A stretch of DNA of 51,217 nucleotides from an uncultured Candidatus Saccharibacteria bacterium (GTDB taxonomy: Bacteria > Patescibacteriota > Minisyncoccia > Phycocordibacterales > CAIZLB01): NCBI GenBank assembly GCA_964520545.1, contig CAZFOD010000001.1:4752-55968 (forward strand). The letters run 5' to 3'. A program made the translations under genes and the position numbers. The notes below the pieces were generated by a model, which was not told where the DNA came from, did not search any database, and saw only the letters and a list, made by a program, of their open reading frames with translations. The stretch's first letter is position 1, and every line of letters begins with the position of its first letter. Of this stretch, positions 733-51,217 are shown in pieces.

Positions 733-918
733 AAGACTGATTTGTTTGGTTGTGCCAAAGATCTTCTGTCGCCCACATGGGCTACAGGAGCCCTTGGACG
801 GTGATTGTTTAAAAATATTATATCACTTCGGGCCATAAAGTCAATAGGCGGTTTCCTTGGTTATTCCTTTCACCTATTTCAAAAAAAGGCTAAGATAAAG
901 GGACAAAAGCACCTCAAC

Positions 919-2691
919 ATGACAATCCATTTTGACGAAGATAAACAGAACCAGCGATTGCGCCAACTCCATCTAGACGAGGAAGAGAAAGTGGCTCAAA
1001 TGCTGTCTGAAAAATACGGTATTCCCTATATTGATCTCACTCGAGTTCCGATAAACACAGATGCACTACGTCTAATTCCTGAACCTGAAGCAAGAGAAAA
1101 TGATCTTGCTGTGTTTGAAATTATTGGAAACAATATTTCTGTCGCAATTCATTCTCCAACAAATGAAAACACAACCGCGTCAATAAACACACTCAAAACA
1201 AAAGGATATAACCCTTCCCTGTTTATGACGTCAACAAACAGTCTCAATAAAGCATGGGATCGATACAAAGATCTTTCGTTTGCATTCGAAACAGAAGCAG
1301 GTTCACTTGATATCTCAAATGCAGAAATTGAAAAACTTATTGAGAAGGCAAAAAAACTTGAGGATGTTACAACACTCATTAAAGAAGCACTCAACCTAAA
1401 GAAGAGTCACCGCATCTCACATGTACTTGCAATCATTATGGCAGGTGCGCTTTCCATAAAGGCATCTGACGTGCACGTTGAACCAGAAGAACAGTATGCT
1501 CTCGTGAGGTACCGTCTTGACGGTGTACTTGTTGAAGTCATTCGCTTTGACGTAGAAACATATCACCTCCTTCTGTCACGTATCAAACTTCTTTCTGGAT
1601 TAAAGTTGAATATAAAAGAAAACGCACAAGACGGAAGATTCACCGTTAAGATCTATATGACAGACATAGAAATCCGTACATCCACTATTCCAGGCGCATA
1701 CGGAGAATCTATTGTTATGCGTATCCTCAATCCGAAGTCTATTTCAACTCCAATAGAAGAACTGGGTATTCCAAAAAAGCTTTTTAATCTTCTCGAGGCA
1801 GAAATTGCAAGACCGAGTGGAATGATTCTTACAACAGGACCGACGGGTTCTGGTAAAACAACAACGCTATACGCCTTTCTTCGAAGAGTGCAGAACTCAG
1901 AAATAAAAATTATCACAATCGAAGACCCTATTGAATATCACCTGCCTGGTATAGTCCAAACACAAGTCGAAGAAAAGAAAGGATATGACTTCGGATCTGG
2001 ATTACGATCTGCGATGCGACAAGACCCTGACATCATCATGGTTGGAGAAATTCGAGACAGTGAAACAGCCTCAACTGCAATTCAAGCATCACTAACAGGA
2101 CACCTTGTGTTCTCTACTCTCCACACAAACAATGCGGCTGGTACATTTACACGTCTCGTTGATCTTGGAGCTGACCCAAAGATTCTCACCTCTGCTATCC
2201 ACGTTGCAATTGCACAGCGACTTGTACGAACTCTTTGCAAAGACTGTAAGAAGAAAATCCCGATGCCTCAAGACCGTAAGGCTCTCGTTGAAGAGGTGCT
2301 AGCATCACTTGCCGGACTTGAAGAAGCTAATGAATTTAAAACTGTGCCGGATGAAATTTGGGGTGTAGTTGGATGCGAATCATGCAACAAATCAGGATAC
2401 AAAGGTCGTATTGGTGTGTTTGAAGCTATCATTGCCGACAAAAATATTGAAAACATTATCCGTGAAAACCCAAGCGAACGAGAAATCAAGGAAGCAGCTA
2501 AACCTCAGGGCCTTATCGATCTTCGACAAGATGGGGTCTTGAAAGTATTGCGTGGTGTTACTACATTTGATGAGCTTGAGCGTGTCATCGACCTTGTTGG
2601 CGACGGATCACTTACACCTGAATTGTCTGCAAGTGGGCGAGAATCGAAACCAACCGAATCTAATTCCTATGTCGACACGCCAGCTGTGTAA
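919..2691 (+). CDS. pilB: GspE/PilB-family type IV pilus assembly ATPase
   Basis: ASDVHVEP, Walker A GPTGSGKTTT, TIEDPIEY, MRQDPDIIMVGEIRD, TLHTN, tetra-Cys motif; start moved to ATG 919. Confidence 0.9.
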   Translation: MTIHFDEDKQNQRLRQLHLDEEEKVAQMLSEKYGIPYIDLTRVPINTDALRLIPEPEARENDLAVFEIIGNNISVAIHSPTNENTTASINTLKTKGYNPSLFMTSTNSLNKAWDRYKDLSFAFETEAGSLDISNAEIEKLIEKAKKLEDVTTLIKEALNLKKSHRISHVLAIIMAGALSIKASDVHVEPEEQYALVRYRLDGVLVEVIRFDVETYHLLLSRIKLLSGLKLNIKENAQDGRFTVKIYMTDIEIRTSTIPGAYGESIVMRILNPKSISTPIEELGIPKKLFNLLEAEIARPSGMILTTGPTGSGKTTTLYAFLRRVQNSEIKIITIEDPIEYHLPGIVQTQVEEKKGYDFGSGLRSAMRQDPDIIMVGEIRDSETASTAIQASLTGHLVFSTLHTNNAAGTFTRLVDLGADPKILTSAIHVAIAQRLVRTLCKDCKKKIPMPQDRKALVEEVLASLAGLEEANEFKTVPDEIWGVVGCESCNKSGYKGRIGVFEAIIADKNIENIIRENPSEREIKEAAKPQGLIDLRQDGVLKVLRGVTTFDELERVIDLVGDGSLTPELSASGRESKPTESNSYVDTPAV

Positions 2692-2698
2692 TTGTCAA

Positions 2699-2727
2699 TT
2701 GACTTCAATTCATAGCGGGCGTATTGT
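2699..2727 (+). promoter_or_regulatory. sigma70-like promoter TTGACT-N17-TATTGT
   Basis: hexamers and spacing read directly. Confidence 0.5.
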
Positions 2728-2791
2728 GAACCTTAGTTGAGAAAAAAAGAAAAGCGCGACGGTGAGTCGCGCAATTTGCAAGAACAGCTAT

Positions 2792-2941
2792 TTGAATCTC
2801 TAAGCAATGCTTTCGATCCGGAGATTGAAAGCCCGATAGTCCTTTAAGGATAACTCCAGGAACGTGCCACAAGGGTCGCACCAAAATGTCCTATAAGGAA
2901 AACCGATAAAAGCGCAAACTTCGTATTGCTTAGAGATTCAA
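2792..2941 (+). ncRNA. candidate structured RNA or long ruvB leader closed by a 19-bp stem
   Basis: 2792-2810 pairs with 2923-2941 (one G.U); internal hairpins; no ORF. Confidence 0.45.
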
Positions 2942-2980
2942 GGAGCCGTTAGTGAAATATACTAGCACGAAACTATTTTT

Positions 2981-4036
2981 ATGTCAAGCACCCCCTTCCC
3001 TCAACCTATAGACCCCTCAGAAACCGATAATGATGCGGATTCAACTTCAGTTGAGGAACGAGTTCTCGATCAAACTCTTCGTCCTCACAAATTTGAAGAA
3101 TATATTGGTCAGGAAAACATCAAAAACAACCTTCATATCCTTTTGACTGCAGCAAAAGAAAGAAACCATCCACCAGAACACCTCCTTTTTTACGGCCCAC
3201 CAGGTCTTGGTAAGACCACTCTTGCACACCTCATTGCAAAGGAAACAAAATCACAAATGAAAGTGACATCTGGTCCTGCAATTGAACGTGTCGGCGACCT
3301 CGCATCTATACTTACAAACCTTTCACCAGGAGATATTCTTTTTGTAGACGAAATACACCGCCTAAACAAGACCGTAGAAGAAGTCCTCTATCCTGCCATG
3401 GAGTCAGGACAGATTGATATCATCATAGGTAAAGGCCCTTCGGCCCGAACCATACAACTTGATCTGCCACCGTTTACACTAATTGCGGCAACTACACGTA
3501 TCGCGATGATATCCTCCCCTCTTCGCTCTCGATTCTCTGGTGGAGTGTTTCGACTCGAATTCTATACAGAAAAAGAAATCGAAGAGATTGTTAGAAGATC
3601 TGCGAAAATACTTGGTATAGAAATTGACCCTGTAGCACTTGTTGAAATAGCCAGTCGCAGTAGATCTACTCCACGAACTGCAAACTATCTACTTAAACGC
3701 TGCCGTGACTTTGCACAAATAAAGAAAACAGATATGACAAAAGAGATTGTCGATGGAGCACTCGCTCTTTTGGGCATTGATCAAAAAGGTTTAACACTTT
3801 CTGACCGAAAGATATTAGAGACCGTGGTGAATAAATATAACGGCGGGCCAGTTGGTCTCAACACAATTGCGGCATCACTTTCAGAAGATCAGGCCACAAT
3901 CGAAGAATTTAACGAACCTTACCTTATTCAAATCGGGTTCATTGAGCGCACACCTCGAGGAAGAATTGTAACAAAGGCAGGTTATGCGCACCTTGGTGTT
4001 GAATACCCTGATGAGAAACAGCCGAAACTCGTATAA
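2981..4036 (+). CDS. ruvB: Holliday junction branch migration helicase RuvB
   Basis: LRP..F.EYIGQ, GPPGLGKTTLA, TSGPAIE, FVDEIHRL, RTPRGR. Confidence 0.97.
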   Translation: MSSTPFPQPIDPSETDNDADSTSVEERVLDQTLRPHKFEEYIGQENIKNNLHILLTAAKERNHPPEHLLFYGPPGLGKTTLAHLIAKETKSQMKVTSGPAIERVGDLASILTNLSPGDILFVDEIHRLNKTVEEVLYPAMESGQIDIIIGKGPSARTIQLDLPPFTLIAATTRIAMISSPLRSRFSGGVFRLEFYTEKEIEEIVRRSAKILGIEIDPVALVEIASRSRSTPRTANYLLKRCRDFAQIKKTDMTKEIVDGALALLGIDQKGLTLSDRKILETVVNKYNGGPVGLNTIAASLSEDQATIEEFNEPYLIQIGFIERTPRGRIVTKAGYAHLGVEYPDEKQPKLV

Positions 4037-4038
4037 AC

Positions 4039-4518
4039 ATGCGTGTACTAGCAATTGATCCTGGATACGAAAGACTTGGAATTGCCGTTATTGATAAAAC
4101 GACAACAAACAAAGATGATCTTGTGTATTCAGACTGTCTCCGAACTTCTCCGAAAGAATCATTTGAACAAAGACTTTTAGTAATTGGTAATGAAATAGAA
4201 AAAGTTATTGAAGAATATTCACCAAAAGCTTTAGCGATTGAAAATCTTTTTTTAAGTAACAATCAAAAAACAGCAATGCGTGTTGCAGAAGTTCGTGGTG
4301 CAATATTGTATCTTGCTGCAAAAAACGGACTAGTGATAAGTGAAATGACACCTCTACAAATCAAACTTGCAGTAACTGGTGATGGAAAAAGTAGCAAAGA
4401 TCAAATGATGAAAATGGTTAACCTTCTTATAAAAACAACCAAGAAAGATATGCTTGATGACGAGTATGATGCCATCGCTGCAGGTATAGCGTTCTTTGCT
4501 CTTAATAAGAAATTTTAA
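4039..4518 (+). CDS. ruvC: crossover junction endonuclease RuvC
   Basis: AIDPGY, AIENLF, EVRGAI, DDEYDAIA. Confidence 0.93.
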   Translation: MRVLAIDPGYERLGIAVIDKTTTNKDDLVYSDCLRTSPKESFEQRLLVIGNEIEKVIEEYSPKALAIENLFLSNNQKTAMRVAEVRGAILYLAAKNGLVISEMTPLQIKLAVTGDGKSSKDQMMKMVNLLIKTTKKDMLDDEYDAIAAGIAFFALNKKF

Positions 4519-4629
4519 TCACCTTAATCTTTCCCTTGAGTTATCCACCACTCCAAAAGGTTGCATATTTTAGACGATATGATAAATAGTATCTACACAA
4601 CCAATTTATTGTAATTTTACACACAAACC

Positions 4630-4866
4630 ATGGCAGATGATTTGTTAGAAGAAAAAGAAGTGACGGAAGAAAAAGATATACCAGTTGCAGGCATCATTGC
4701 AGCTGCTGAAGAGGAACACGACGACGCTCACGACCCCTTCCTCGATGGAGGATTCGGAGATGAAAGCCTTGATCCAGAAGAAGCAGATGCACTAGCGATG
4801 GGATACAGAATCAAGGGAGGAGCAGAGGAAGAAGAAGATGATTTCTTCAGCGGAGACGAGGAATAG
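4630..4866 (+). CDS. small highly acidic hypothetical protein
   Basis: 78 aa D/E-rich ORF with upstream promoter-like sequence and downstream terminator. Confidence 0.7.
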   Translation: MADDLLEEKEVTEEKDIPVAGIIAAAEEEHDDAHDPFLDGGFGDESLDPEEADALAMGYRIKGGAEEEEDDFFSGDEE

Positions 4867-4874
4867 AACATAAC

Positions 4875-4903
4875 AAAAAGAGCACCTGGGTGGTGCTCTT
4901 TTT
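4875..4903. terminator. bidirectional intrinsic terminator
   Basis: AAAAAGAGCACC-tgggt-GGTGCTCTTTTT between convergent genes. Confidence 0.85.
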
Positions 4904-4906
4904 GTA

Positions 4907-6097
4907 TTATCGTATTTTCAGTTTTATAAACCGCCTCTTACCAACCTTTACAACAATTTCCTCATTAACCTCAAAGTTAAAATCAGACACCTTCTCTCCT
5001 CCAACAACTGATACACCCCCTTCTTTTACAAGACGCTTAAATTCACCAATCGATTCAATAACAGCTGCATCAAGAAGTGCTTTTGAAAGAAGGGTTCCTC
5101 CTGCAATTGAGGATTCAGGAATTTCTGTTGGAACATCTCCTTTAGAAAAAGCATTCACAAAAGATTCCTCGGCGGTATCCGCAGCGGTTTTACCGTGATA
5201 GAAAGTAACAATTCTTTTTGCGAGATCAACTTTTATATCCCGTGGATTTTTTGAGGCGTCAGCAAGTTGTTCAGAAATGTTAGCAAGTTCTTTTTCATTC
5301 ACATCTGTGCAAAGTTCAAATCCTGGAATTATCATTCCATCAGTCCAGCTCATTATTTTTCCAAACATATCTTGTGCAGAGTCAGACAAAGAAACCATAT
5401 TACCTTCTGTTTTTCCCATCTTCTTACCAGTCGCATCTGCCAAGAGCTTCATTGTAATAGCTGCCTTTTCTTTGTTCAGAAGTTTCTTTTCCAAATCTCT
5501 ACCCACGAGCATATTAAACATTTGATCGTTTCCACCGATTTCTACATCTACTTCGAGAGCCACACTGTCATACCCTTGGAGCAAGGGATACATAAATTCG
5601 TGAATGGATATTGGCTTACCTTCTGCTGTTCGTTTTGCAAACATGTCACGCTTAAGCATTTGATCAACCGTCATGAGCGATGACAGATGGAGAATTTCTT
5701 TCAAACCCATTTTCTTAAGCCAGGTTGAGTTGTATACAATCTTTGCACCACCCCAAGAGAAGTTGAGAAACTTCGATGCCTGCTTTTTGTACACCTTCAT
5801 ATTTTTTACCACCTCTGCTTCAGAAAGCACCTTTCGTGTATCCGACTTGTCTGTTGGATCTCCGATTAGTGCAGTAAAGTCACCAATGAGAAGTATCACC
5901 TCGTGACCAAGCTTCTGAAACTCAGCAAGTTTCTTGAGCACAATTGCATGACCTATGTGTAGTGTTGGGCCCGTTGGATCTATGCCCGCATAAACTCTAA
6001 GTCTCTTTTGTTTTGAGATTTGTGAATTTAAAAAATCAACCGATGGTATGACCTGCTCCACCCCGCGGGTAAACAATGAGGAGTTGTGACTATTCAT
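4907..6097 (-). CDS. tyrS: tyrosine--tRNA ligase (bacterial type)
   Basis: GIDPTGPTLHIGH, YPLLQGYD, GGNDQ, KMGKT, C-terminal S4-like domain. Confidence 0.96.
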   Translation of the reverse strand: MNSHNSSLFTRGVEQVIPSVDFLNSQISKQKRLRVYAGIDPTGPTLHIGHAIVLKKLAEFQKLGHEVILLIGDFTALIGDPTDKSDTRKVLSEAEVVKNMKVYKKQASKFLNFSWGGAKIVYNSTWLKKMGLKEILHLSSLMTVDQMLKRDMFAKRTAEGKPISIHEFMYPLLQGYDSVALEVDVEIGGNDQMFNMLVGRDLEKKLLNKEKAAITMKLLADATGKKMGKTEGNMVSLSDSAQDMFGKIMSWTDGMIIPGFELCTDVNEKELANISEQLADASKNPRDIKVDLAKRIVTFYHGKTAADTAEESFVNAFSKGDVPTEIPESSIAGGTLLSKALLDAAVIESIGEFKRLVKEGGVSVVGGEKVSDFNFEVNEEIVVKVGKRRFIKLKIR

Positions 6098-6217
6098 GAA
6101 GATAAATCTAGCATATTTTGCTCTGGTTTGGTATGCTCGGCAACGTTCGTTTTTAAACCGTTTTTAACCTATTGTTGAGGCTTTCACTGTGATACGATTA
6201 AGTTTGCATACATATAT

Positions 6218-8659
6218 ATGATAAAAAAAATAAAAAAGTTCATTTCGCGAGCAAAAGCTGCAATCAAGAACCCTACGGAAAGGAAACTGATACTCCGTGA
6301 CACATTCCTTGTTGGTATTATTGTCGTAGTCCTTGGATCAGGCTCCCTTCTTTTATGGGCTGCTAGCCTTAAAACCCCCGATCTCAACTCGTTCGACGAT
6401 CGACTTCTAGGCCAATCTGCCAAGATATACGACCGAACAGGAACAATTCTCCTCTACGATCTTAGCCAGCGGGTTCGAAGAACTGTTGTCCCTTTTGACC
6501 AAATCAGCAAAGATCTCAAAAATGCTACCGTATCTATTGAAGATGCCGATTTTTATAAACACAAAGGAATCAAGACAACATCCATTGTTCGAGCTGTATT
6601 AGCAAACCTCCTCACACTACGATTTAGCCAAGGAGGATCAACAATCACCCAGCAGGTAATTAAAAATTCCCTTCTTACCACAGATAAAGATATTTCTAGA
6701 AAACTTAAGGAGTGGATATTGGCACTTAAACTTGAAAAGGTTGCAGACAAAGACTCGATTCTCAACCTCTACCTCAACGACACGTCTTATGGAGGAAATA
6801 TTTATGGAGTAGCTGAGGCAAGTTCTGTATTCTTTGCTAAGAAACCTTCAGAATTAACATTGGCGGAGTCTGCTTACCTTGCAGCAATTCCTCAAGCTCC
6901 TACTCGGTATTCTCCATATGGAACACATGTAGACGAGCTTGTTTCAAGAAAGAACTTGGTACTGAAGAAGATGGAAGAATATTCTTACATCACAGACGAG
7001 CAGTACAACCAGGCGATAAACGAAGCGGTGGTGTTTCAGCCGAAAAGTGTTGGTGGAATCAAAGCACCACACTTTGTGATGTTTATTAAACAATACCTAG
7101 AAGACAAGTATGGTGATGAGCTTCTACAAAAAGGTGGCTTTAAAGTAATCACCACAATTGACTACAATCTCCAGCAAAAAGCTGAGGAGATTGTAAAGAA
7201 ATATGTAACTGAAAACGAAAAGAATTTTAAAGCATCAAACGGAACACTTGTTGCAACAGATCCTAAAACAGGCCAAATATTAGTGATGGTTGGATCAAGA
7301 GACTATTTCGACAAAGACATAGAGGGTAACTTCAATGTTGCCACAGCCCACAGGCAGCCAGGATCAGCGTTCAAACCGTTTGTGTATGCAACAGCATTCA
7401 ACAAAGGTTTTGTGCCTGAGAGCCCAATATATGACGTATTCACAGAGTTCAACGCTTCGTGCTCAAGTCTTGGAACCCCTAATGTAACTGGTGCTAAATG
7501 CTACCACCCGCAAAACTATGAAGGTGGTTATCAAGGCCTCATGACACTAAGGTCTGCTCTTGCTCAATCAAGAAACATCCCTGCTGTAAGACTCTTGTAT
7601 ATGGTTGGTATTGAAGAAGCAATTAGAACAGCAAGAGCGATGGGGATTGATAGTCTAACAACAGCGGCTCAGTATGGATTAACACTTGTACTTGGAGGTG
7701 GAGAAGTGTCCCCTCTTGATATGTCGAGTGCGTATGGAGTTTTTGCAAACGATGGTGTTAGAAATCCTTACACGGGCATCCTACGGATTGAAGATTCAAA
7801 CGGTGTTGAGATGGAAACATACGCAACATCAACAAAACAAGTGATTCCTGTTCAAACAGCACGACTCATGAACGATGTACTTTCTGATCCATTTGCAAGA
7901 ACAGCAATCTTTGGCTCACGATACTTTGGAGACAAGAGGGTTGCGATTAAAACCGGTACAACAAACAACTCTCGTGACGCATGGATTGTTGGCTACACGC
8001 CAAATATTTCAGTTGCATCTTGGATGGGAAACAATGACAACTCTCCTATGGTACAGAAAGCTTCTGCCATCATTGTTGCACCGATGTGGAAACAGTTTAT
8101 GAACTATGCGATTGAACAACTTCCCGACGAAGAATTTACAAAACCTGAACCAACAGATCCAGACCTCAAACCATATCTCAGAGGAGTGTGGCAAGGGCCA
8201 GGTACACAGGTTCACTCTGAGCTTTATTGGATAGATAAAAGTAATCCTGCAGGAGATCCTCCCGCAAACCCTGGTAAAGATGGTTTATTTGCTAACTTCG
8301 AATTCGGTGTGAATGGTTGGGCAGGCTCTCATCCTGTACAAGACCCGGTGGCAACCTCAACGTACACAGGACAAGTAAACACCACCACAAGCTTTAGAAT
8401 TGGCTCACCAGCAAACTTGAGTGCAATTGAAAAGAATAGTCGGGCGACAATTACCTTAACAAACATTCCTTCAAACGCGTCGCGTGTTGATTTCTATATC
8501 AACGATCGTGCGATTGGAACATCTAAAGAATTCCCTTACTCGTATTCATTCATTCCTTCTCAGGTAAGTGGAATTCAAGATGAAAACGAACTTAAAGCAG
8601 TAGTCACTGATACACAAGGAACTACACAGCAGAATATTATTCTCTTCTCAGTAATCTAA
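6218..8659 (+). CDS. class A penicillin-binding protein (transglycosylase/transpeptidase) with C-terminal Ig-like domain
   Basis: EDADFYKH, QGGSTITQQ, RKLKE, SAFK, SRN, KTGT. Confidence 0.93.
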   Translation: MIKKIKKFISRAKAAIKNPTERKLILRDTFLVGIIVVVLGSGSLLLWAASLKTPDLNSFDDRLLGQSAKIYDRTGTILLYDLSQRVRRTVVPFDQISKDLKNATVSIEDADFYKHKGIKTTSIVRAVLANLLTLRFSQGGSTITQQVIKNSLLTTDKDISRKLKEWILALKLEKVADKDSILNLYLNDTSYGGNIYGVAEASSVFFAKKPSELTLAESAYLAAIPQAPTRYSPYGTHVDELVSRKNLVLKKMEEYSYITDEQYNQAINEAVVFQPKSVGGIKAPHFVMFIKQYLEDKYGDELLQKGGFKVITTIDYNLQQKAEEIVKKYVTENEKNFKASNGTLVATDPKTGQILVMVGSRDYFDKDIEGNFNVATAHRQPGSAFKPFVYATAFNKGFVPESPIYDVFTEFNASCSSLGTPNVTGAKCYHPQNYEGGYQGLMTLRSALAQSRNIPAVRLLYMVGIEEAIRTARAMGIDSLTTAAQYGLTLVLGGGEVSPLDMSSAYGVFANDGVRNPYTGILRIEDSNGVEMETYATSTKQVIPVQTARLMNDVLSDPFARTAIFGSRYFGDKRVAIKTGTTNNSRDAWIVGYTPNISVASWMGNNDNSPMVQKASAIIVAPMWKQFMNYAIEQLPDEEFTKPEPTDPDLKPYLRGVWQGPGTQVHSELYWIDKSNPAGDPPANPGKDGLFANFEFGVNGWAGSHPVQDPVATSTYTGQVNTTTSFRIGSPANLSAIEKNSRATITLTNIPSNASRVDFYINDRAIGTSKEFPYSYSFIPSQVSGIQDENELKAVVTDTQGTTQQNIILFSVI

Positions 8660-41859: not shown

Positions 41860-41931
41860 GCACCTATGGTGAAATGGATATCACAACGGTCTTCGGAACC
41901 GTTATTCTAGGTTCGAATCCTGGTAGGTGCA
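41860..41931 (+). tRNA. tRNA-Arg(UCG)
   Basis: cloverleaf; anticodon arm ACGGT-CTTCGGA-ACCGT; GGTTCGAATCC; CCA not encoded. Confidence 0.93.
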
Positions 41932-42025
41932 CAAGTTGCAATCAAGCGGTGGGTGTATTGCGTGTTGGTTTTGCAACGATATGTTATAGTGTTCAGCGTT
42001 CAGGCGGTAATTAACAGTCGAATAT

Positions 42026-42096
42026 GCGGGTATGGTTTAGTGGTAGAATGCGTCCTTGCCAAGGACGAGACGAGAGTTCGATTCTCTCTACCCGCA
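42026..42096 (+). tRNA. tRNA-Gly(GCC)
   Basis: GCGGGTA/TACCCGC acceptor; CGTCC-TTGCCAA-GGACG; CCA not encoded. Confidence 0.95.
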
Positions 42097-42100
42097 CATG

Positions 42101-42136
42101 TGAAAAAGACAGGGTCAAATGATCCTGTCTTTTTCA
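42101..42136 (+). terminator. terminator after tRNA-Gly
   Basis: TGAAAAAGACAGGGTC-aaat-GATCCTGTCTTTTTCA. Confidence 0.8.
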
Positions 42137-42716
42137 TTGGGTAAATTTTAAGGCGAAAAGCAGAAGATTTTGAGGTTTCTAGAGGAGAAATATGAGTACT
42201 AGTTTTGCACACAACTGTGGATAACTAGGTGGATATGTGTATAAAAGACAATTTTAGCTGTCTAATAAAAATATGGGATTTTTGGCAGTTTTCGCCAAAT
42301 ACGGCTAGCATTATGGTTTAAAACAAAAAGACTGTAACAAAATTAGTCTTATATTGCATAATCAATAGTTTCACGTGCCACACTCTCGAAAGGGTATTCT
42401 CGCGTTACACGTTTAACATCTTTTTAATAAAGGGCTTAAATTATAGGCATCATAATTTTCTACGGCTTTATGTATTTTGTGAATGTTATTTATGAAACCA
42501 AATTTGATCTACTTTCGTACTTTATTTGGAGCTTCTTGTTAGACGGGGGAGTGATCTCCTAGATTATGAGATAAAAGGACACATTTACTATTGGATGGGG
42601 GATATGGGTTATTCGTTTATATATAAATTCTGTGCATGGAGGAGCATCGGCTCCAATTTATTGAGCCCCTAGTAATTGTGTGCTAAGCTACGGCTCTAGA
42701 TTTGAATTCTAGATAA

Positions 42717-42792
42717 CGGGGTGTGGTGTAACGGCTAACATGCTTCACTTGGGCTGAAGTGACTCCGGGTTCGAATCCCGGCACCCCGACCA
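42717..42792 (+). tRNA. tRNA-Pro(UGG)
   Basis: CGGGGTG/CACCCCG; CTTCA-CTTGGGC-TGAAG; CCA encoded. Confidence 0.95.
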
Positions 42793-42830
42793 GTTTTTGG
42801 TAACTTTATAGGTATAACCTAATCAGTCTC

Positions 42831-43154
42831 GTGCAAATATCACGGTTTAAAAGGAAACAAGAGGACTTTGTTTGTGAACACTGTGGCGTTCATGTTGTTG
42901 GTAATGGATATACGAACCACTGCCCAAATTGCCTTTGGAGTAAGCATGTAGACGTAAACCCAGGGGATAGGGCGTCAGAATGTAAGGGTATGATGAAGCC
43001 TGTTGGTGCCGACGGTACGACTAATAACTACAGCATTTTGAATAAATGCATTGTTTGTGGGTATGAAAAGAGGAATAAGTGTGCAAAGGATGACAATATG
43101 GATGTCTTTTTTGCAATTATTGCTGAAAAAATAGCTGAGCAGAGCCGTCGATAA
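42831..43154 (+). CDS. RNHCP domain protein
   Basis: F.CEHCG, NHCPNCLWSKHVD..PGDRAS.C.G.M. Confidence 0.85.
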   Translation: MQISRFKRKQEDFVCEHCGVHVVGNGYTNHCPNCLWSKHVDVNPGDRASECKGMMKPVGADGTTNNYSILNKCIVCGYEKRNKCAKDDNMDVFFAIIAEKIAEQSRR

Positions 43155-44319
43155 GCTTTTGTATTAAATCTAGTCGGTTGTGTTCAAACTGAGAGGCGAT
43201 AGTCTGGGTACTCTGAGAGATATATGAATTTAGGCTTCTTCCTGTGTCTTTTAAGACGACAGAGTTGATGTGTGCAATTGAAAGCCCTCGAGCATGTTTA
43301 AAGAGGGGACTGTCTCCGCTTACGGTAGTTACGATTATCCCCGCTAACCTGTTTGATTTATCAAGCAGAGCTCCTCCCGAAGATCCGTGTTGAGCCTGAA
43401 GGCTGTCGCTCGTTTCTATGAGATCCACTGATGTGCTTTGTGTGAAGCTGAATATATCGCTGACGCGGAGACGCTCAACTTGAACAGTCAGAGGTGCGTT
43501 GATGCCGCGGCTTGCTAGTGAGTCAGCGGGATATGAGGCGATTGATATAGTATCGTTCTTCTGTAATGCATCTGTCGATAGGGGGAGGTAGTTAAATTGC
43601 TTTGATACAGGATTTCCAGTTGCTTTATCGACAATTTGAAGTATCGCAATATCATTTTCACCTGTCTCTGCAAAATTTACCTGCGAGATATTGCGATAAT
43701 TTTGATATATCCAATCCCTAGATACAAAAAGTGTTTTTACTCCGTAGGTGTTATTGATTGGCGAGCCTGTTCTGATAAAACAATTTAAGTTTTTTGAAAC
43801 AGAGCTTCCTTGTAAGAGAGGGAACTGGCCTACGTGTGCATTTGTTAAAACAATACCTCGAGAGTCTATTACAACACCACTACCTGTAATTGCCTTAACG
43901 TTTCTACCTATCTGTACTGTGCAATATATATTTACAACCGAGCTCCTTAAGTCTTGATCATTATTAGTCTTTGCAACTACAGGTAAGTCGATATTTGGAA
44001 TGTTTATTGTTGGAACTTGAATCTTTGGAGTTATTGCTGGAGCTTCGATTGAATATTGAAATATTTTTTTGAAATTATAATCCAAACTCTTTACGGGAAG
44101 GATAGAAACTTTTTCAGGATAGTTTAAATATATTGGAATATATTTCTGTTTTGTTTTGGTTGATATTGTTTCTATATAGTCAGGAATCGAAATCTCTATA
44201 GTTTCAATTGGTGGGGGAATGGTTTCTACGTATTTGGGTGCTGGTGACGGGCTGAGGATGCCTGTGAGGCTGAAAAATAGGCTAAGAAGGCCTTTGCCGA
44301 GCGTTTGGTATAATGCCAT
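43117..44319 (-). CDS. trypsin-like (S1) serine protease, exported
   Basis: GSGVVI, LTNAHV, DIAIL, HGSSGG; start moved to ATG 44319. Confidence 0.85.
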   Translation of the reverse strand: MALYQTLGKGLLSLFFSLTGILSPSPAPKYVETIPPPIETIEISIPDYIETISTKTKQKYIPIYLNYPEKVSILPVKSLDYNFKKIFQYSIEAPAITPKIQVPTINIPNIDLPVVAKTNNDQDLRSSVVNIYCTVQIGRNVKAITGSGVVIDSRGIVLTNAHVGQFPLLQGSSVSKNLNCFIRTGSPINNTYGVKTLFVSRDWIYQNYRNISQVNFAETGENDIAILQIVDKATGNPVSKQFNYLPLSTDALQKNDTISIASYPADSLASRGINAPLTVQVERLRVSDIFSFTQSTSVDLIETSDSLQAQHGSSGGALLDKSNRLAGIIVTTVSGDSPLFKHARGLSIAHINSVVLKDTGRSLNSYISQSTQTIASQFEHNRLDLIQKLIDGSAQLFFQQ

Positions 44320-44398
44320 TTCGGGAGTATAGCAGATTTTCTCAAGCTCTGTTATAGTGTCTGAAGTTTCGTCTTTTACCAAGGGGTCTGGCGAACAT

Positions 44399-44469
44399 GC
44401 GGGATTAGTTTAATGGTAGAACTACAGTTTTCCAAACTGTTGGCGGGAGTTCGATTCTCCCATCCCGCA
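44399..44469 (+). tRNA. tRNA-Gly(UCC)
   Basis: GCGGGAT/ATCCCGC; ACAGT-TTTCCAA-ACTGT; CCA not encoded. Confidence 0.95.
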
Positions 44470-48675: not shown

Positions 48676-49428
48676 ATGTTAGAAAAATATCTCCAAGAAA
48701 TTGGTTTGGCGGAAAAAGAGGCAGCTGTATATGCGGCTTTACTCCAAGTCGAGAATGATTCCGTACTTGATATTGCAAAGAAGACAAAGATAAATAGGAC
48801 AACAATATACCCAGTACTTGAATCTTTGGCCAAGAAAGGACTTATAAGTGAAGTTAAGGTAGATAAGAAAATACGTTTTCAGGCTGAACCGCCAGAGCGA
48901 TTAGAGACCTATGTTGAGCGCCAGAAAGTGGTGTTGAACGAACAAGGACGAAGATTGAAGGATATTATACCGCAACTCAAGAGTGTGCAGAGAGAGGTTG
49001 GCGAGCGACCAGTTGTTAAATATTTTGAAGGGCGTGAGGGAATCATCAGTTCACTTGAAGATTTCTTCAGTACGAATGATGAGGGGGGAGAAGCTTACCT
49101 ACTATACTCAAAAGACCTATTGCAGGGATTATTTACTGAAAAGGAGCAGGAAAAGTTTAGATCGCTAAGATTAAAACAACATATTAAAACAAAGGTTTTA
49201 TATACAACAGCCGGTATTGAAAGACCCTCTGATAATATGGGTCAAAGGATAAGAATTGATGGCAAAAAATATCCGATTTCGTGTGATATCAGTATTTACA
49301 AAGATAGGGTACGTATTAATACGCTCGGTAAGTCATTGTCTGGTATCTATATATTAAGCCAGGATCTAGCAGATACTTTAAGAAGTTTGTTCGATATAGC
49401 GTTTGATCAGCTAAAGAAGGAGGAATAA
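48676..49428 (+). CDS. TrmB-family transcriptional regulator
   Basis: GL.EKEA.VY.ALL, INRTTIY..LE.L.KKGLI winged HTH, P.VKYFEG.EGI. Confidence 0.88.
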   Translation: MLEKYLQEIGLAEKEAAVYAALLQVENDSVLDIAKKTKINRTTIYPVLESLAKKGLISEVKVDKKIRFQAEPPERLETYVERQKVVLNEQGRRLKDIIPQLKSVQREVGERPVVKYFEGREGIISSLEDFFSTNDEGGEAYLLYSKDLLQGLFTEKEQEKFRSLRLKQHIKTKVLYTTAGIERPSDNMGQRIRIDGKKYPISCDISIYKDRVRINTLGKSLSGIYILSQDLADTLRSLFDIAFDQLKKEE

Positions 49429-50142: not shown

Positions 50143-50170
50143 TTGACAAAATATTGAAAATGCATATAAT
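50143..50170 (+). promoter_or_regulatory. consensus sigma70 promoter TTGACA-N16-TATAAT
   Basis: both hexamers are perfect. Confidence 0.75.
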
Positions 50171-50290
50171 ATCCAACAGATAGTTTGAAATAGCAAGTTT
50201 GCTTCCATCTGAATCACTTATGAATAGGTGGCTCTGACGGGAGCAAAACGTTCCTAAAACAAAAAACAACCAACCTAGAAAGGAGTAAAT

Positions 50291-50338
50291 ATGACCTACA
50301 CCGTCAACAAGCGCGGCGAAGTTATCGTCCTGAAATAG
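50291..50338 (+). CDS. 15-aa micro-ORF MTYTVNKRGEVIVLK
   Basis: SD GAAAGGAG 5 nt upstream of ATG, after an A/C-rich unstructured tract. Confidence 0.45.
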   Translation: MTYTVNKRGEVIVLK

Positions 50339-50341
50339 GAC

Positions 50342-50486
50342 ACTCTGCGAAAGCAGAGTTTGGAAGTCTGTCATGATCCTTTGGCAAAGATCGTGAACGT
50401 CACAGGTAACATGTGAGCCAAGAGGAAGCAGAGCCTCCGAGTTAAAGCACTCAGACAAAAGCTTGGTGGGTACACAAGTATCCACC
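50342..50486 (+). ncRNA. multibranch structured RNA domain upstream of the ribozyme
   Basis: ACTCTGC-GAAA-GCAGAGT; GTCTG/CAGAC closing four hairpins; GGTGGGTAC-acaa-GTATCCACC. Confidence 0.5.
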
Positions 50487-50488
50487 TC

Positions 50489-50536
50489 CTGTCCACGAAT
50501 GTAATTCGTGCTGATGAGTCCAAAAGGACGAAACAG
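50489..50536 (+). ncRNA. type III hammerhead ribozyme
   Basis: CTGTC|CACGAA-tgtaa-TTCGTG-CTGATGA-GTCC-aaaa-GGAC-GAAA-CAG: full core, three stems, GUC cleavage triplet (cut after 50493). Confidence 0.92.
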
Positions 50537-50538
50537 AA

Positions 50539-50658
50539 ATCTTTACATGGTTCCCTTCACCTCATCCCGCGCTTCGTTTTTACGTCGCGGACATCAACCA
50601 CTCAAATAATATAGTGGTCCCCGCAGGCGCTGGGTGAGGTGAAGGGAATATGGAAGAT
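50539..50658 (+). ncRNA. rod-like structured RNA, Y-RNA candidate or anti-SD leader
   Basis: 17-bp stem 50551-50567/50632-50648 with nested GCGCTT/AGGCGC, GCGG/CCGC, ACCACT/AGTGGT; upstream of TROVE gene. Confidence 0.5.
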
Positions 50659-50699
50659 CTGATCTTTAAATACTTATCTCATAAATATCAAAAAGTTTC

Positions 50700-50767
50700 G
50701 GTTCGGTTTCGGCAGATAGATATTGCTTTAATTAATGAAGGCAATGTTTATCTGTCGAAATTGAATC
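50700..50767 (+). other. 30-bp uninterrupted RNA hairpin with 7 G.U pairs
   Basis: 50700-50729 pairs with 50738-50767, 8-nt loop. Confidence 0.8.
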
Positions 50768-50844
50768 CAATTCTTGGAGCTACCGCCATTGCGGAGTGTG
50801 GTGGGTCACTTCTGATCCATCCTTCAAACCTACAGAGAGAACCT

Positions 50845-51217
50845 ATGAAAAACCTTCAAACGATTCTTGCCGCAGGCCGCAGTGTTCGCGTTAGCAGCAG
50901 TCAGGTGACGAACCGCGCTGGGGCACCAGCGTTCCGCCGCTCCTTACAAGAGCAGGTGGTCCAGGTCCTCTCGACCGGCACGCTCAGTGACACTTTCTAC
51001 GCCACGCGAGAGGAACTCGCGAAGGAGGCGTTGCAAGTGCTCATCGAAGCGCGCGACACGATTCCGTCTTTCTTGGCGCGCGCCCTTGTGTGGGCACGCG
51101 AAGAAGGGCTGATGAAGTCGCTGCCGGTCTTGGGACTTGTCGTGTTGTCGTCCGCGGGGGCTCGCACACGCGAGCTCTTCGAGAACGCCTTTCCGCGCGT
51201 GGTGAAAACTCCTGATG
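50845..51217 (+). CDS. TROVE-domain (Ro60/Rsr-like) RNA-binding protein, 3'-truncated; missed by ORF track
   Basis: MKNLQ...TNRAGAPAF...LSTGTLSDTFYAT...PSFLARALVWAREEGLMKSLP...FPRVVKTPD matches the TROVE N-terminus pattern; alternative in-frame ATG at 50650. Confidence 0.8.
   Translation, partial: MKNLQTILAAGRSVRVSSSQVTNRAGAPAFRRSLQEQVVQVLSTGTLSDTFYATREELAKEALQVLIEARDTIPSFLARALVWAREEGLMKSLPVLGLVVLSSAGARTRELFENAFPRVVKTPD

Follow-up and report, generated by a model that had tools for sequence, protein, structure and literature searches.

A type III hammerhead ribozyme at the head of a predicted ribozyme-punctuated accessory operon in a Patescibacteria-type genome

Introduction

The stretch of DNA analysed here, hereafter termed the window, comprises 51,217 nucleotides (nt) of contig CAZFOD010000001.1 from an uncultured Candidatus Saccharibacteria bacterium (assembly GCA_964520545.1) and harbours near its 3' end a complete type III hammerhead ribozyme, HH1, at positions 50489-50536 of the plus strand. 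HH1 is the first of four hammerheads that lie on the same strand in one operon, and it is best read as an active, essentially constitutive ribozyme that segments a polycistronic transcript (probability about 0.7). The motif, its non-random occurrence, its covariation, its placement between cistrons and a conserved hairpin upstream of it are observed directly. The parts of the reading differ in strength: HH1 is almost certainly a genuine hammerhead; going by its sequence, it would very probably cleave in vivo; and a role in transcript segmentation and insulation, proposed by analogy, is reasonably likely. HH1 belongs to a large hammerhead subfamily of small-genome bacteria and phages, most of which is missed by standard annotation thresholds.

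Anatomy of HH1 and its match to the Rfam model

HH1 is defined by sequence reading, by the Rfam model RF00008 (Hammerhead_3) and by covariation with paralogues and relatives. A preliminary description of the window, made from the letters alone, had proposed a complete type III hammerhead at the above coordinates, with a full core, a stem I of 6-7 base pairs (bp), a stem II of the form GUCC-AAAA-GGAC and a stem III of 4 bp. All of these elements, including CUGAUGA, GAAA and GUC, are correctly placed on reading. Stem III pairs 50489-50492 (CUGU) with 50533-50536 (A50533, then CAG at 50534-50536), and is followed by C50493 as the cleavage nucleotide C17. The triplet G50491-U50492-C50493 fits the N-U-H rule (H not G), and the cut that had been predicted 3' of C50493 agrees in silico with the hammerhead cleavage rule. 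Stem-loop I occupies 50494-50510, where 50494-50500 and 50504-50510 (CACGAAU/AUUCGUG) form either 7 bp with the loop GUA or 6 bp with the loop UGUAA. The core stretch CUGAUGA (50511-50517) leads into the 4-bp stem-loop II at 50518-50529 (GUCC 50518-50521, loop AAAA, GGAC 50526-50529), which is followed by GAAA at 50530-50533, with GAA at 50530-50532. Every core position (C3, U4, G5, A6, N7, G8 and A9, together with G12, A13 and A14) corresponds to the consensus, and both core-closing pairs are present, namely A15.1-U16.1 (A50533-U50492) and G10.1-C11.1 (G50518-C50529). The topology is that of type III, since stem III is the open helix through which the flanks enter, and loops close stems I and II. 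The hammerhead of the tobacco ringspot virus satellite presumably has similar stems II and III and a partly similar loop I.

The preliminary description had named Hammerhead_3 as the family to look for, and RF00008 indeed matches HH1 end to end: positions 50486-50539 align with model positions 1-54 at 43.7 bits, with an E-value of 4.2e-8 in a search of 901 nt and of 7.8e-9 over the whole genome. The score lies below the gathering score of 48.5, and a default Rfam scan of the window at gathering thresholds returned four tRNAs only, with HH1 missing. The shortfall arises mainly from a loop II that lacks 4 nt relative to the consensus and from two non-canonical pairs at the outer end of stem III; the gathering score is a curation threshold rather than a biological defining feature. 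With the RF00008 type III hammerhead, HH1 shares the full core, the three helices, the open stem III, the loops on stems I and II, the GUC triplet and a match over the whole model, whereas its loop II comprises 4 nt (AAAA) instead of 8 positions and its stem III is short. Judged by every defining feature at the sequence level, HH1 is a type III hammerhead, and the curation threshold is its sole miss.

The motif is not expected by chance. The window has a single match to the core pattern CTGATGAG-N10-CGAAA, and none of 100 dinucleotide-preserving shuffles contains one. A structural regular expression was built around the core, with minimum helix lengths of 4 bp for stem I and 3 bp for stem II and no more than one of four stem III pairs missing. 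It finds four sites in the genome of 709,428 bases (0.71 Mb; 97.8% complete), all of them on the plus strand of one contig (C1) and within 3.7 kb of each other. Twenty locally shuffled versions of the genome yielded five matches summed.

Paralogues and strain-level conservation

The genome that carries the window (G000) contains three hammerheads detectable by Rfam. With coordinates of the locus L004, which equal the window coordinate minus 50000, these are HH1 at 486-539 (43.7 bits), HH2 at 3621-3674 (42.7 bits) and HH3 at 4103-4156 (38.9 bits). The hammerheads of this genome, together with the TrmB-like regulator gene, the promoter, the leader elements, the hairpins around HH1 and the TROVE/Ro60-like gene described below, are all on the plus strand. 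HH1, HH2 and HH3 have the same core and the same loops (UGUAR and AAAA), and they differ by compensatory changes in all stems. Stem I reads CACGAA/UUCGUG, CGAGAA/UUCUCG and UCGGAG/CUCCGA in the three copies, stem II is GUCC/GGAC or GCUC/GAGC, and stem III is CUG/CAG (as in HH2) or UCC/GGA (in HH3).

The fourth site found by the structural expression, at L004 2720-2785, has the core CCGAUGA (U4 to C) and good stems, of which stem I is longer and interrupted by an internal loop; it was not reported by the RF00008 search at E<=5. This copy may be decaying or inactive, or it may represent a tolerated core variant. A second CCGAUGA copy is found in a relative (G049; L040 15197-15250).

A strain contig of about 97% identity, assembled from the sequencing run X4, differs from the window by 24 substitutions over 1118 nt, none of which falls within 50361-50548. 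Two more hammerhead-like copies are present on this contig further downstream.

A hammerhead subfamily in small-genome bacteria and viruses

At E<=1e-3, RF00008 matches were obtained in 28 of 101 genomes, comprising G000 and 100 relatives (27/100 among the relatives), and in 22 of the 83 genomes that are at least 90% complete; 14 control genomes gave none. Matches above the gathering score occur in only two of the 101 genomes. Most copies of the subfamily remain under this score because their loop II has 4 nt (AAAA; 8 positions in the Rfam consensus) and their stem III is short, and therefore routine annotation misses most of them. Many matches in relatives are clustered, with copies on one strand spaced by a few hundred nucleotides.

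For the covariation analysis 44 copies were taken, three rows of 52 nt with gaps misplaced by MAFFT were dropped, and the remaining 41 were realigned. Standard pairs account for 97.7% of the 656 pair cells, a percentage inflated by the choice of copies with a structure-aware model and a pairing-demanding expression; shuffles reach 73.5% (0/500 attain the observed value), and sliding the partners against each other leaves 31-49% paired. The variety of pair types is unaffected by selection for structure. Changes on both sides are seen in 14 of 16 pairs (stem I, 7/7; stem II, 3/4; stem III, 4/5), and the only pairs invariant in all 41 copies are A15.1-U16.1 and G10.1-C11.1. Likewise, the core columns C3-A6, G8, A9 and G12-A14 are invariant, N7 being the exception, while the cleavage-triplet column was constrained by the expression, such that family-wide triplet counts are not independent. 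In the loops, U14 and G15 are conserved in at least 90% of the copies, A37 and A39 of loop II are invariant and A38 again reaches at least 90%. On the aligned sequences, such conservation is as expected if loops I and II make a tertiary contact for fast cleavage (PMC3088659). The short CUGU/ACAG stem III is common to most of the 41 copies, whatever gene comes next.

At the DNA level, a match search in 60 relatives recovered the hammerhead alone (query 387-446; 50-60 nt) in 11 of them; the leader, the leader open reading frame (ORF) and the downstream hairpins of HH1, described below, had no DNA match in these 60 relatives. The exact subtype pattern CTGATGAG-NN-CAAAAG-NN-CGAAACAG is present in at least 118 stretches of species-representative genomes and in 103 viral contigs. 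By title, 80 of the genome stretches divide into 32 from Saccharibacteria, Saccharimonas or Nanosynbacter, 26 from other Patescibacteria groups, 15 from unnamed bacteria and 7 from other taxa. The trigger factor of G000 shares 90% identity with the homologue of a Patescibacteria group bacterium, and 63-65% with those of Candidatus Saccharibacteria or Paceibacterota.

Tandem repetition was seen at two loci. L035 contains three identical ribozymes in tandem, and in the relative G001 (L045 5839-7044) a 576-nt unit composed of a hammerhead and an ORF of 162 amino acids occurs twice in tandem with 100% protein identity. Either this cassette was duplicated very recently or the repeat is an artefact of the assembly.

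Placement between genes and the upstream hairpin

Hammerheads of the subfamily sit between co-directional small genes, usually just 3' of a hairpin. For 43 hammerheads of relatives, ORFs were called crudely (first ATG, GTG or TTG; at least 60 amino acids): in 32 of 42 cases the nearest same-strand stop is no more than 150 nt 5' of the cut, in 27 of 41 the next start follows within 150 nt, and 6 of the 43 hammerheads fall inside a called ORF. In viral contigs the median distance is 35 nt to the upstream stop and 24 nt to the downstream start.

A 9-bp hairpin predicted by folding (50465-50486) directly precedes HH1. Counting a hammerhead as preceded by a hairpin if the 32 nt 5' of it fold at -6 kcal/mol or better, such hairpins are found in 31 of 43 copies from relatives (control windows, 10/43; shuffled, 7/43), in 122 of 172 copies on genome contigs (54/172 and 27/172, respectively) and in 96 of 118 on viral contigs (12/118 and 17/118). 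A hairpin ending a few nucleotides 5' of the cut is thus found family-wide, and an upstream RNA ending in a hairpin is therefore a family trait.

Inspection by eye shows that, in several cassettes, the first start codon 3' of the ribozyme is contained in the 3' arm of a long hairpin, and this applies here to AUG 50650 after HH1 and to the start of the small membrane ORF (orf90) after HH2. A conserved box AGAAnnUCUUUAA 3' of the ribozyme, likewise noticed by eye, was dropped, as it retains 0.0-0.6 bits per position beyond the stem.

Promoter, leader and the region preceding TROVE

Upstream of HH1, a sigma-70-like promoter at 50143-50170 (TTGACA, 16-nt spacer, TATAAT) matches both hexamers at 12 of 12 positions. 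The X4 strain contig carries three substitutions in its spacer and none in either hexamer. From the promoter position we infer a transcription start near 50177, which together with the hammerhead cleavage rule predicts an upstream cleavage product, the leader, of about 317 nt (50177-50493). The preliminary description had envisaged an upstream RNA of about 315 nt ending in a hairpin, which accords well with this length and with the 9-bp hairpin followed by 7 nt. Within the leader, sequence reading reveals a putative 15-codon ORF, MTYTVNKRGEVIVLK, at 50291-50338, preceded by AAAGGAG.

The untranslated region 3' of HH1 is structured to an extreme degree (z -13.35 over 683 nt). Its first element, at 50546-50652, is a branched stem-loop of very high stability (minimum free energy -55.2 kcal/mol; z -7.15), whose 3' arm pairs AUG 50650 with CAU 50546; none of 200 shuffles folds as well, and it has no Rfam match. 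Next, at 50693-50774, the 5' untranslated region of the TROVE/Ro60-like gene folds into a hairpin some 30 bp long. This hairpin matches microRNA-precursor models only, and far below their cut-offs, simply because the region is a long hairpin. The two structures could serve as RNase III sites or protein-binding elements. A similar long hairpin is found at L276 1614-1691, 2.3 kb upstream of a TROVE homologue.

The downstream cleavage product had been expected to carry the TROVE message. This part of the proposal stands, in that no terminator-like site separates HH1 from the TROVE ORF, while the notion of HH1 as a leader device specific for TROVE is contradicted by the comparative evidence given below.

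Proposed mechanism

A hammerhead cut after position 17 yields a 2',3'-cyclic phosphate and a 5'-hydroxyl end, and contacts between the loops make the reaction fast at physiological Mg2+ (PMC3088659). In vitro, polycistronic native fragments some 2 kb in length and bearing three hammerheads were cut at each ribozyme (PMC3088659). By extension, RNA initiated at the promoter 50143-50170 would fold into a three-helix junction and cut itself 3' of C50493. The leader of about 317 nt would thereby be released, and its 3' end would consist of the hairpin, a 7-nt extension and the 2',3'-cyclic phosphate. The downstream RNA, comprising the two large hairpins and the TROVE/Ro60 message, would start with a 5'-hydroxyl and retain the compact ribozyme body as a cap-like 5' structure.

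The four ribozymes together would split one polycistronic transcript into separate RNAs. In each case the 3' end of the upstream unit would be guarded by hairpin and cyclic phosphate. 5'-hydroxyl ends are poor substrates for 5'-monophosphate-dependent RNases, and the ends of the RNA units would be poor substrates for end-dependent RNases in general; as such ends resist these enzymes, the stability and translation of each unit would be uncoupled from those of its neighbours. The hammerheads of the operon would then be a natural counterpart of synthetic ribozyme insulators. Hammerhead insulators of the RiboJ type reach a cleavage efficiency of 0.84-0.94 in E. coli, and in the accompanying model uncleaved mRNA has about twice the decay rate (PMC7536230).

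Weighing the evidence

Several points weigh against an active, constitutive ribozyme that segments the transcript. Besides the score under the Rfam gathering cut-off, stem III of HH1 has only 4 bp and adds about 1.5 kcal/mol in a nearest-neighbour model; the same model, which ignores tertiary contacts, pairs the CUG of the core with CAG 50534-50536 at a probability of 0.86 and leaves 0.02 for stem III. The structure-based choice of copies, the dropped alignment rows, the crude ORF calls and the hammerheads inside such calls, all described above, also count here. Transcription from the promoter, continuity of the operon, cleavage in vivo and a stabilising or insulating consequence are inferred, and the stabilising effect of 5'-hydroxyl ends in this host is assumed by analogy with other bacteria. 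A search for sequencing runs found 20, one of them RNA (with 6% of the sampled words), and its assembled contigs were compared with those of three DNA runs. The RNA run yielded two contigs of 151 and 166 nt with 5-6 mismatches each, at 50988-51137 and 51153-51217; both lie inside the TROVE coding region, neither covers the ribozyme, and as contigs cannot show RNA ends they are neutral on cleavage.

The marginal stem III and its dominant predicted competitor could also mean, as the preliminary description had suggested for the short stem III, that HH1 is conditional, i.e., that its cleavage is set by a signal such as translation of the 15-codon ORF, a bound protein (e.g., Ro60) or temperature, and works as a switch for TROVE expression. 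The strong Shine-Dalgarno-like box of the short leader ORF and the highly structured untranslated region downstream (z -13.35 over 683 nt; z -7.15) would suit such a switch. We nevertheless regard it as quite unlikely. The CUGU/ACAG stem III is shared by most of the 41 copies regardless of the next gene, and the same competitor pairing is therefore family-wide; weak stems III are, moreover, very common in natural hammerheads (PMC3088659). The leader, the ORF and the hairpins are conserved in none of the 60 relatives, TROVE homologues occur at loci without hammerheads, and the Rfam search matched no aptamer-like family. That HH1 is a decayed or chance motif which no longer cleaves is very improbable. 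Its sub-threshold score and the fourth copy of the operon, whose core change (CCGAUGA, U4 to C) implies that copies can drift, point in this direction, but all core positions of HH1 are consensus, the core pattern is absent from all 100 shuffles, compensatory changes keep all stems across paralogues and relatives, and the 24 substitutions over 1118 nt of the strain contig spare the interval between 50361 and 50548.

A further possibility is that the ribozyme serves a selfish or phage-derived element, in which hammerhead-bounded cassettes spread between genomes and phages, possibly via excised or circularised RNA. The occurrence of the exact subtype pattern in 103 viral contigs and at least 118 genome stretches agrees with this, as do the insertion of the operon (about 8.5 kb between tig and rsmE, with none at the corresponding loci of 14 relatives), a GC content of 50-60% against about 38-42% in the flanks, the conservation of the hammerhead alone at the DNA level, the identical tandem copies in L035 and L045, and the differing neighbourhoods of the orf90 cassette in G000 versus G045 and G047. 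On the other hand, Pfam, PHROGs and PADLOC recognised none of the island proteins as an integrase, a reverse transcriptase or a phage structural protein, no RtcB ligase was found in the 97.8%-complete genome, and the tandem copies could be assembly artefacts. Furthermore, the stems III of HH2 (CUG/CAG) and HH3 (UCC/GGA) are not interchangeable, and therefore a circle formed from HH2 to HH3 would not rebuild a good hammerhead. A selfish element is thus unlikely as the main purpose of the ribozyme, and it would be compatible with the same cleavage mechanism.

The TROVE/Ro60-like gene and its RNA neighbours

The gene downstream of HH1 starts at 50845, fills the rest of the window (50845-51217) and extends to L004 2494. 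Pfam and PHROGs identify its product as TROVE/Ro60-like (Pfam TROVE, E 6e-14; vWA_Ro60, E 6.5e-10; phrog_850, RNA-binding protein, E 4e-42). TROVE homologues align from residue 4-5 of the ORF starting at 50845, and the strain contigs have a 1-nt insertion behind 50653; because of these two observations, an N-terminal extension from the in-frame AUG 50650 was rejected.

TROVE is present in G000 alone among the 101 genomes (0/100 relatives). Homologues of 57-58% identity were found at two loci of the candidate phyla radiation (CPR), titled Doudnabacteria and Uhrbacteria, and neither locus contains a hammerhead, either by the structural expression or by Rfam at E<=0.1. A TROVE-specific role of the hammerhead was therefore rejected, with hammerheads in 27/100 relatives, TROVE in none of them and TROVE homologue loci lacking hammerheads. 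The view of HH1 as a chromosomal TROVE leader element, put forward in the preliminary description, does not hold either, as HH1 is the first of four hammerheads in an accessory operon on an island. Since TROVE is confined to G000 among these genomes, a foreign Ro60-like gene appears to have been inserted into a resident ribozyme-punctuated operon. The pairing of Ro60 and hammerhead seems to have arisen by chance insertion and not to form a system; on present evidence it is a one-off.

A conserved RNA module lies beside TROVE in three CPR loci, with two copies per locus (L004 about 2834-2935 and 3273-3365; L275 about 3545-3585 and 3690-3765; L276 about 3630-3742). Its outer helix CCUUAGnnC/GnnCUGAGG is supported by compensatory changes (AGUC/GACU, AACC/GGUU, AGUUC/GAACU) and is followed by an inner helix GUCC/GGAC and the 3' tail WUACUUCGAMC. 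The module has no Rfam match, and neither a Y RNA nor any other known Rfam family was found in the flanks of HH1 and the operon at E<=10, E<=0.01 or E<=5. From its sequence and position, it is a candidate for a Y-RNA-like partner of the Ro60 protein.

Bacterial rsr (Ro60)-Y RNA-rtcBA loci likewise place a Ro60 gene beside structured non-coding RNAs, and RtcB-type ligases join 2',3'-cyclic phosphate and 5'-hydroxyl ends as made by hammerheads. The locus described here resembles them in the TROVE/Ro60 gene next to structured non-coding RNAs, and differs in having no detected RtcB and no Rfam match to a Y RNA; also, the link to hammerheads is missing at the two other CPR TROVE loci. RtcB-mediated ligation or circularisation was rejected, as RtcB (PF01139) was not found in the 97.8%-complete genome.

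Operon, accessory island and regulator

The operon comprises, in this order, the leader, HH1, TROVE, structured non-coding RNAs, HH2, orf90, HH3, a gene with a DnaJ domain and three ORFs without a Pfam family. The interval of about 1.1 kb between TROVE and HH2 contains no convincing ORF and holds the CCGAUGA variant and the two copies of the RNA module. All four hammerheads are on the same strand of the one operon.

The small membrane ORF orf90 (L004 3680-3974) encodes two hydrophobic helices and has homologues in L035, L036 and L052. These are about 78-90 amino acids long and adjoin hammerheads in four genomes: hammerheads bracket the ORF in G000, G047 and G034, and in G045 a hammerhead is found 3' only. 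The orf90 start codon lies within a 16-bp hairpin, and the layout brings to mind small membrane toxins or holins under tight repression. The neighbourhoods of the cassette differ between G000 and G045/G047.

The operon is part of an island of about 8.5 kb between rsmE and tig (48214-56800, i.e., to L004 6800), defined by comparison with 14 relatives. In eight of these, tig and rsmE are less than 350 nt apart, compared with about 8.5 kb in G000, and none of the 14 loci contains a hammerhead, an island protein or island DNA. Accordingly, the operon resides in an accessory island and not in a conserved chromosomal leader. The GC content is 50-60% over L004 about 800-6700 and about 38-42% in the flanks.

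Comparison of eight island proteins with Pfam, PHROGs and PADLOC revealed no recognisable integrase, reverse transcriptase or structural protein of a phage; the PHROG matches are to Ro60-like, DnaJ-like and helix-turn-helix (HTH) proteins only. An identity as defence system or phage was rejected, since PADLOC returned only HTH-domain matches of the regulator and there was no phage structural or integrase match.

The operon promoter is preceded, at a distance of about 700 nt, by a TrmB-like HTH regulator gene (48676-49428). Its product is 51% identical to the representative of a TrmB-family cluster (c0) that adjoins the hammerhead operon in G047 and matches Pfam PF01978 at E 8e-16. As a raw count, TrmB-like genes are found in 15 of 21 hammerhead loci examined; the G000 genome has only two.

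In another genus (G012; L043), the clpP-tig gap, where no rsmE was seen, holds a nearly identical hammerhead; judging by a look at the sequence, the next genes are one for an HTH protein of XRE type and a pair resembling Phd/RelE. Taken together, the rsmE/clpP-tig interval suggests a hot spot for accessory genes.

Relation to known systems and significance

The functional match is to the clustered, gene-flanking hammerheads of prophages described in 2011 (Perreault et al.; PMC3088659), which share an orientation and flank single genes or short blocks of varying identity. Their proposed role is to process long transcripts to gene-length mRNAs (PMC3088659). The present array has in common with them several ribozymes of the same orientation flanking genes. 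It differs in its setting, a chromosomal accessory operon beside a TrmB-like regulator in a 0.7-Mb genome of Patescibacteria type, where phage genes were not recognised, and in that all copies are of type III, a conserved hairpin lies directly upstream and one unit bears a Ro60/TROVE gene. With the RiboJ-type insulators (hammerhead plus hairpin; PMC7536230), HH1 shares a type III hammerhead ahead of a coding unit, whose cleavage cuts away the RNA before it and gives a 5' end that is both defined and structured. In contrast to these, HH1 is natural, its kind is repeated along an operon, the hairpin is located upstream rather than downstream, and the insulating effect is here a prediction.

A library search for hammerheads in the candidate phyla radiation, Patescibacteria or Saccharibacteria found no paper that was relevant by title and abstract start, although the supplements of PMC3088659 may list similar metagenomic copies; a search joining hammerhead with Y RNA and Ro60 gave nothing related by title and abstract start. 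New in the present analysis are the host group, the position of most of the family under the annotation cut-off, the conserved upstream hairpin and the Ro60 neighbour.

A broader architecture can be sketched, which we consider doubtful. Patescibacteria and their phages might maintain TrmB-regulated operons of interchangeable cassettes, each bounded by a hairpin and a minimal type III hammerhead, and the array described here might have captured a foreign Ro60/Y-RNA-like module. Each small accessory gene would be freed as its own RNA with 5'-hydroxyl and cyclic-phosphate ends, and many start codons after the ribozymes would be locked in long hairpins. Preferred ligands of Ro60 combine a helix with a single-stranded 3' end; the predicted upstream cleavage products, a helix with a 3' tail of about 7 nt, resemble these, and Ro60 could therefore act on ribozyme-made ends. 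Through its Ro60 neighbour, the locus may connect RNA quality control with the RNA ends that ribozymes make.

The locus is compact and lends itself to testing: a single strong promoter is followed by four serial ribozymes, and for each of them a defined product is predicted. If ribozymes indeed perform operon processing and mRNA end protection here, the operon would be a natural version of the insulators of synthetic biology, and there would be reason to lower annotation thresholds in Patescibacteria-type lineages, with their very small genomes and few RNases.

Further upstream in the window, four tRNA genes (72.5, 70.7, 64.5 and 63.6 bits) are grouped within 2.6 kb (41860-44469), ahead of the rny-clpP block.

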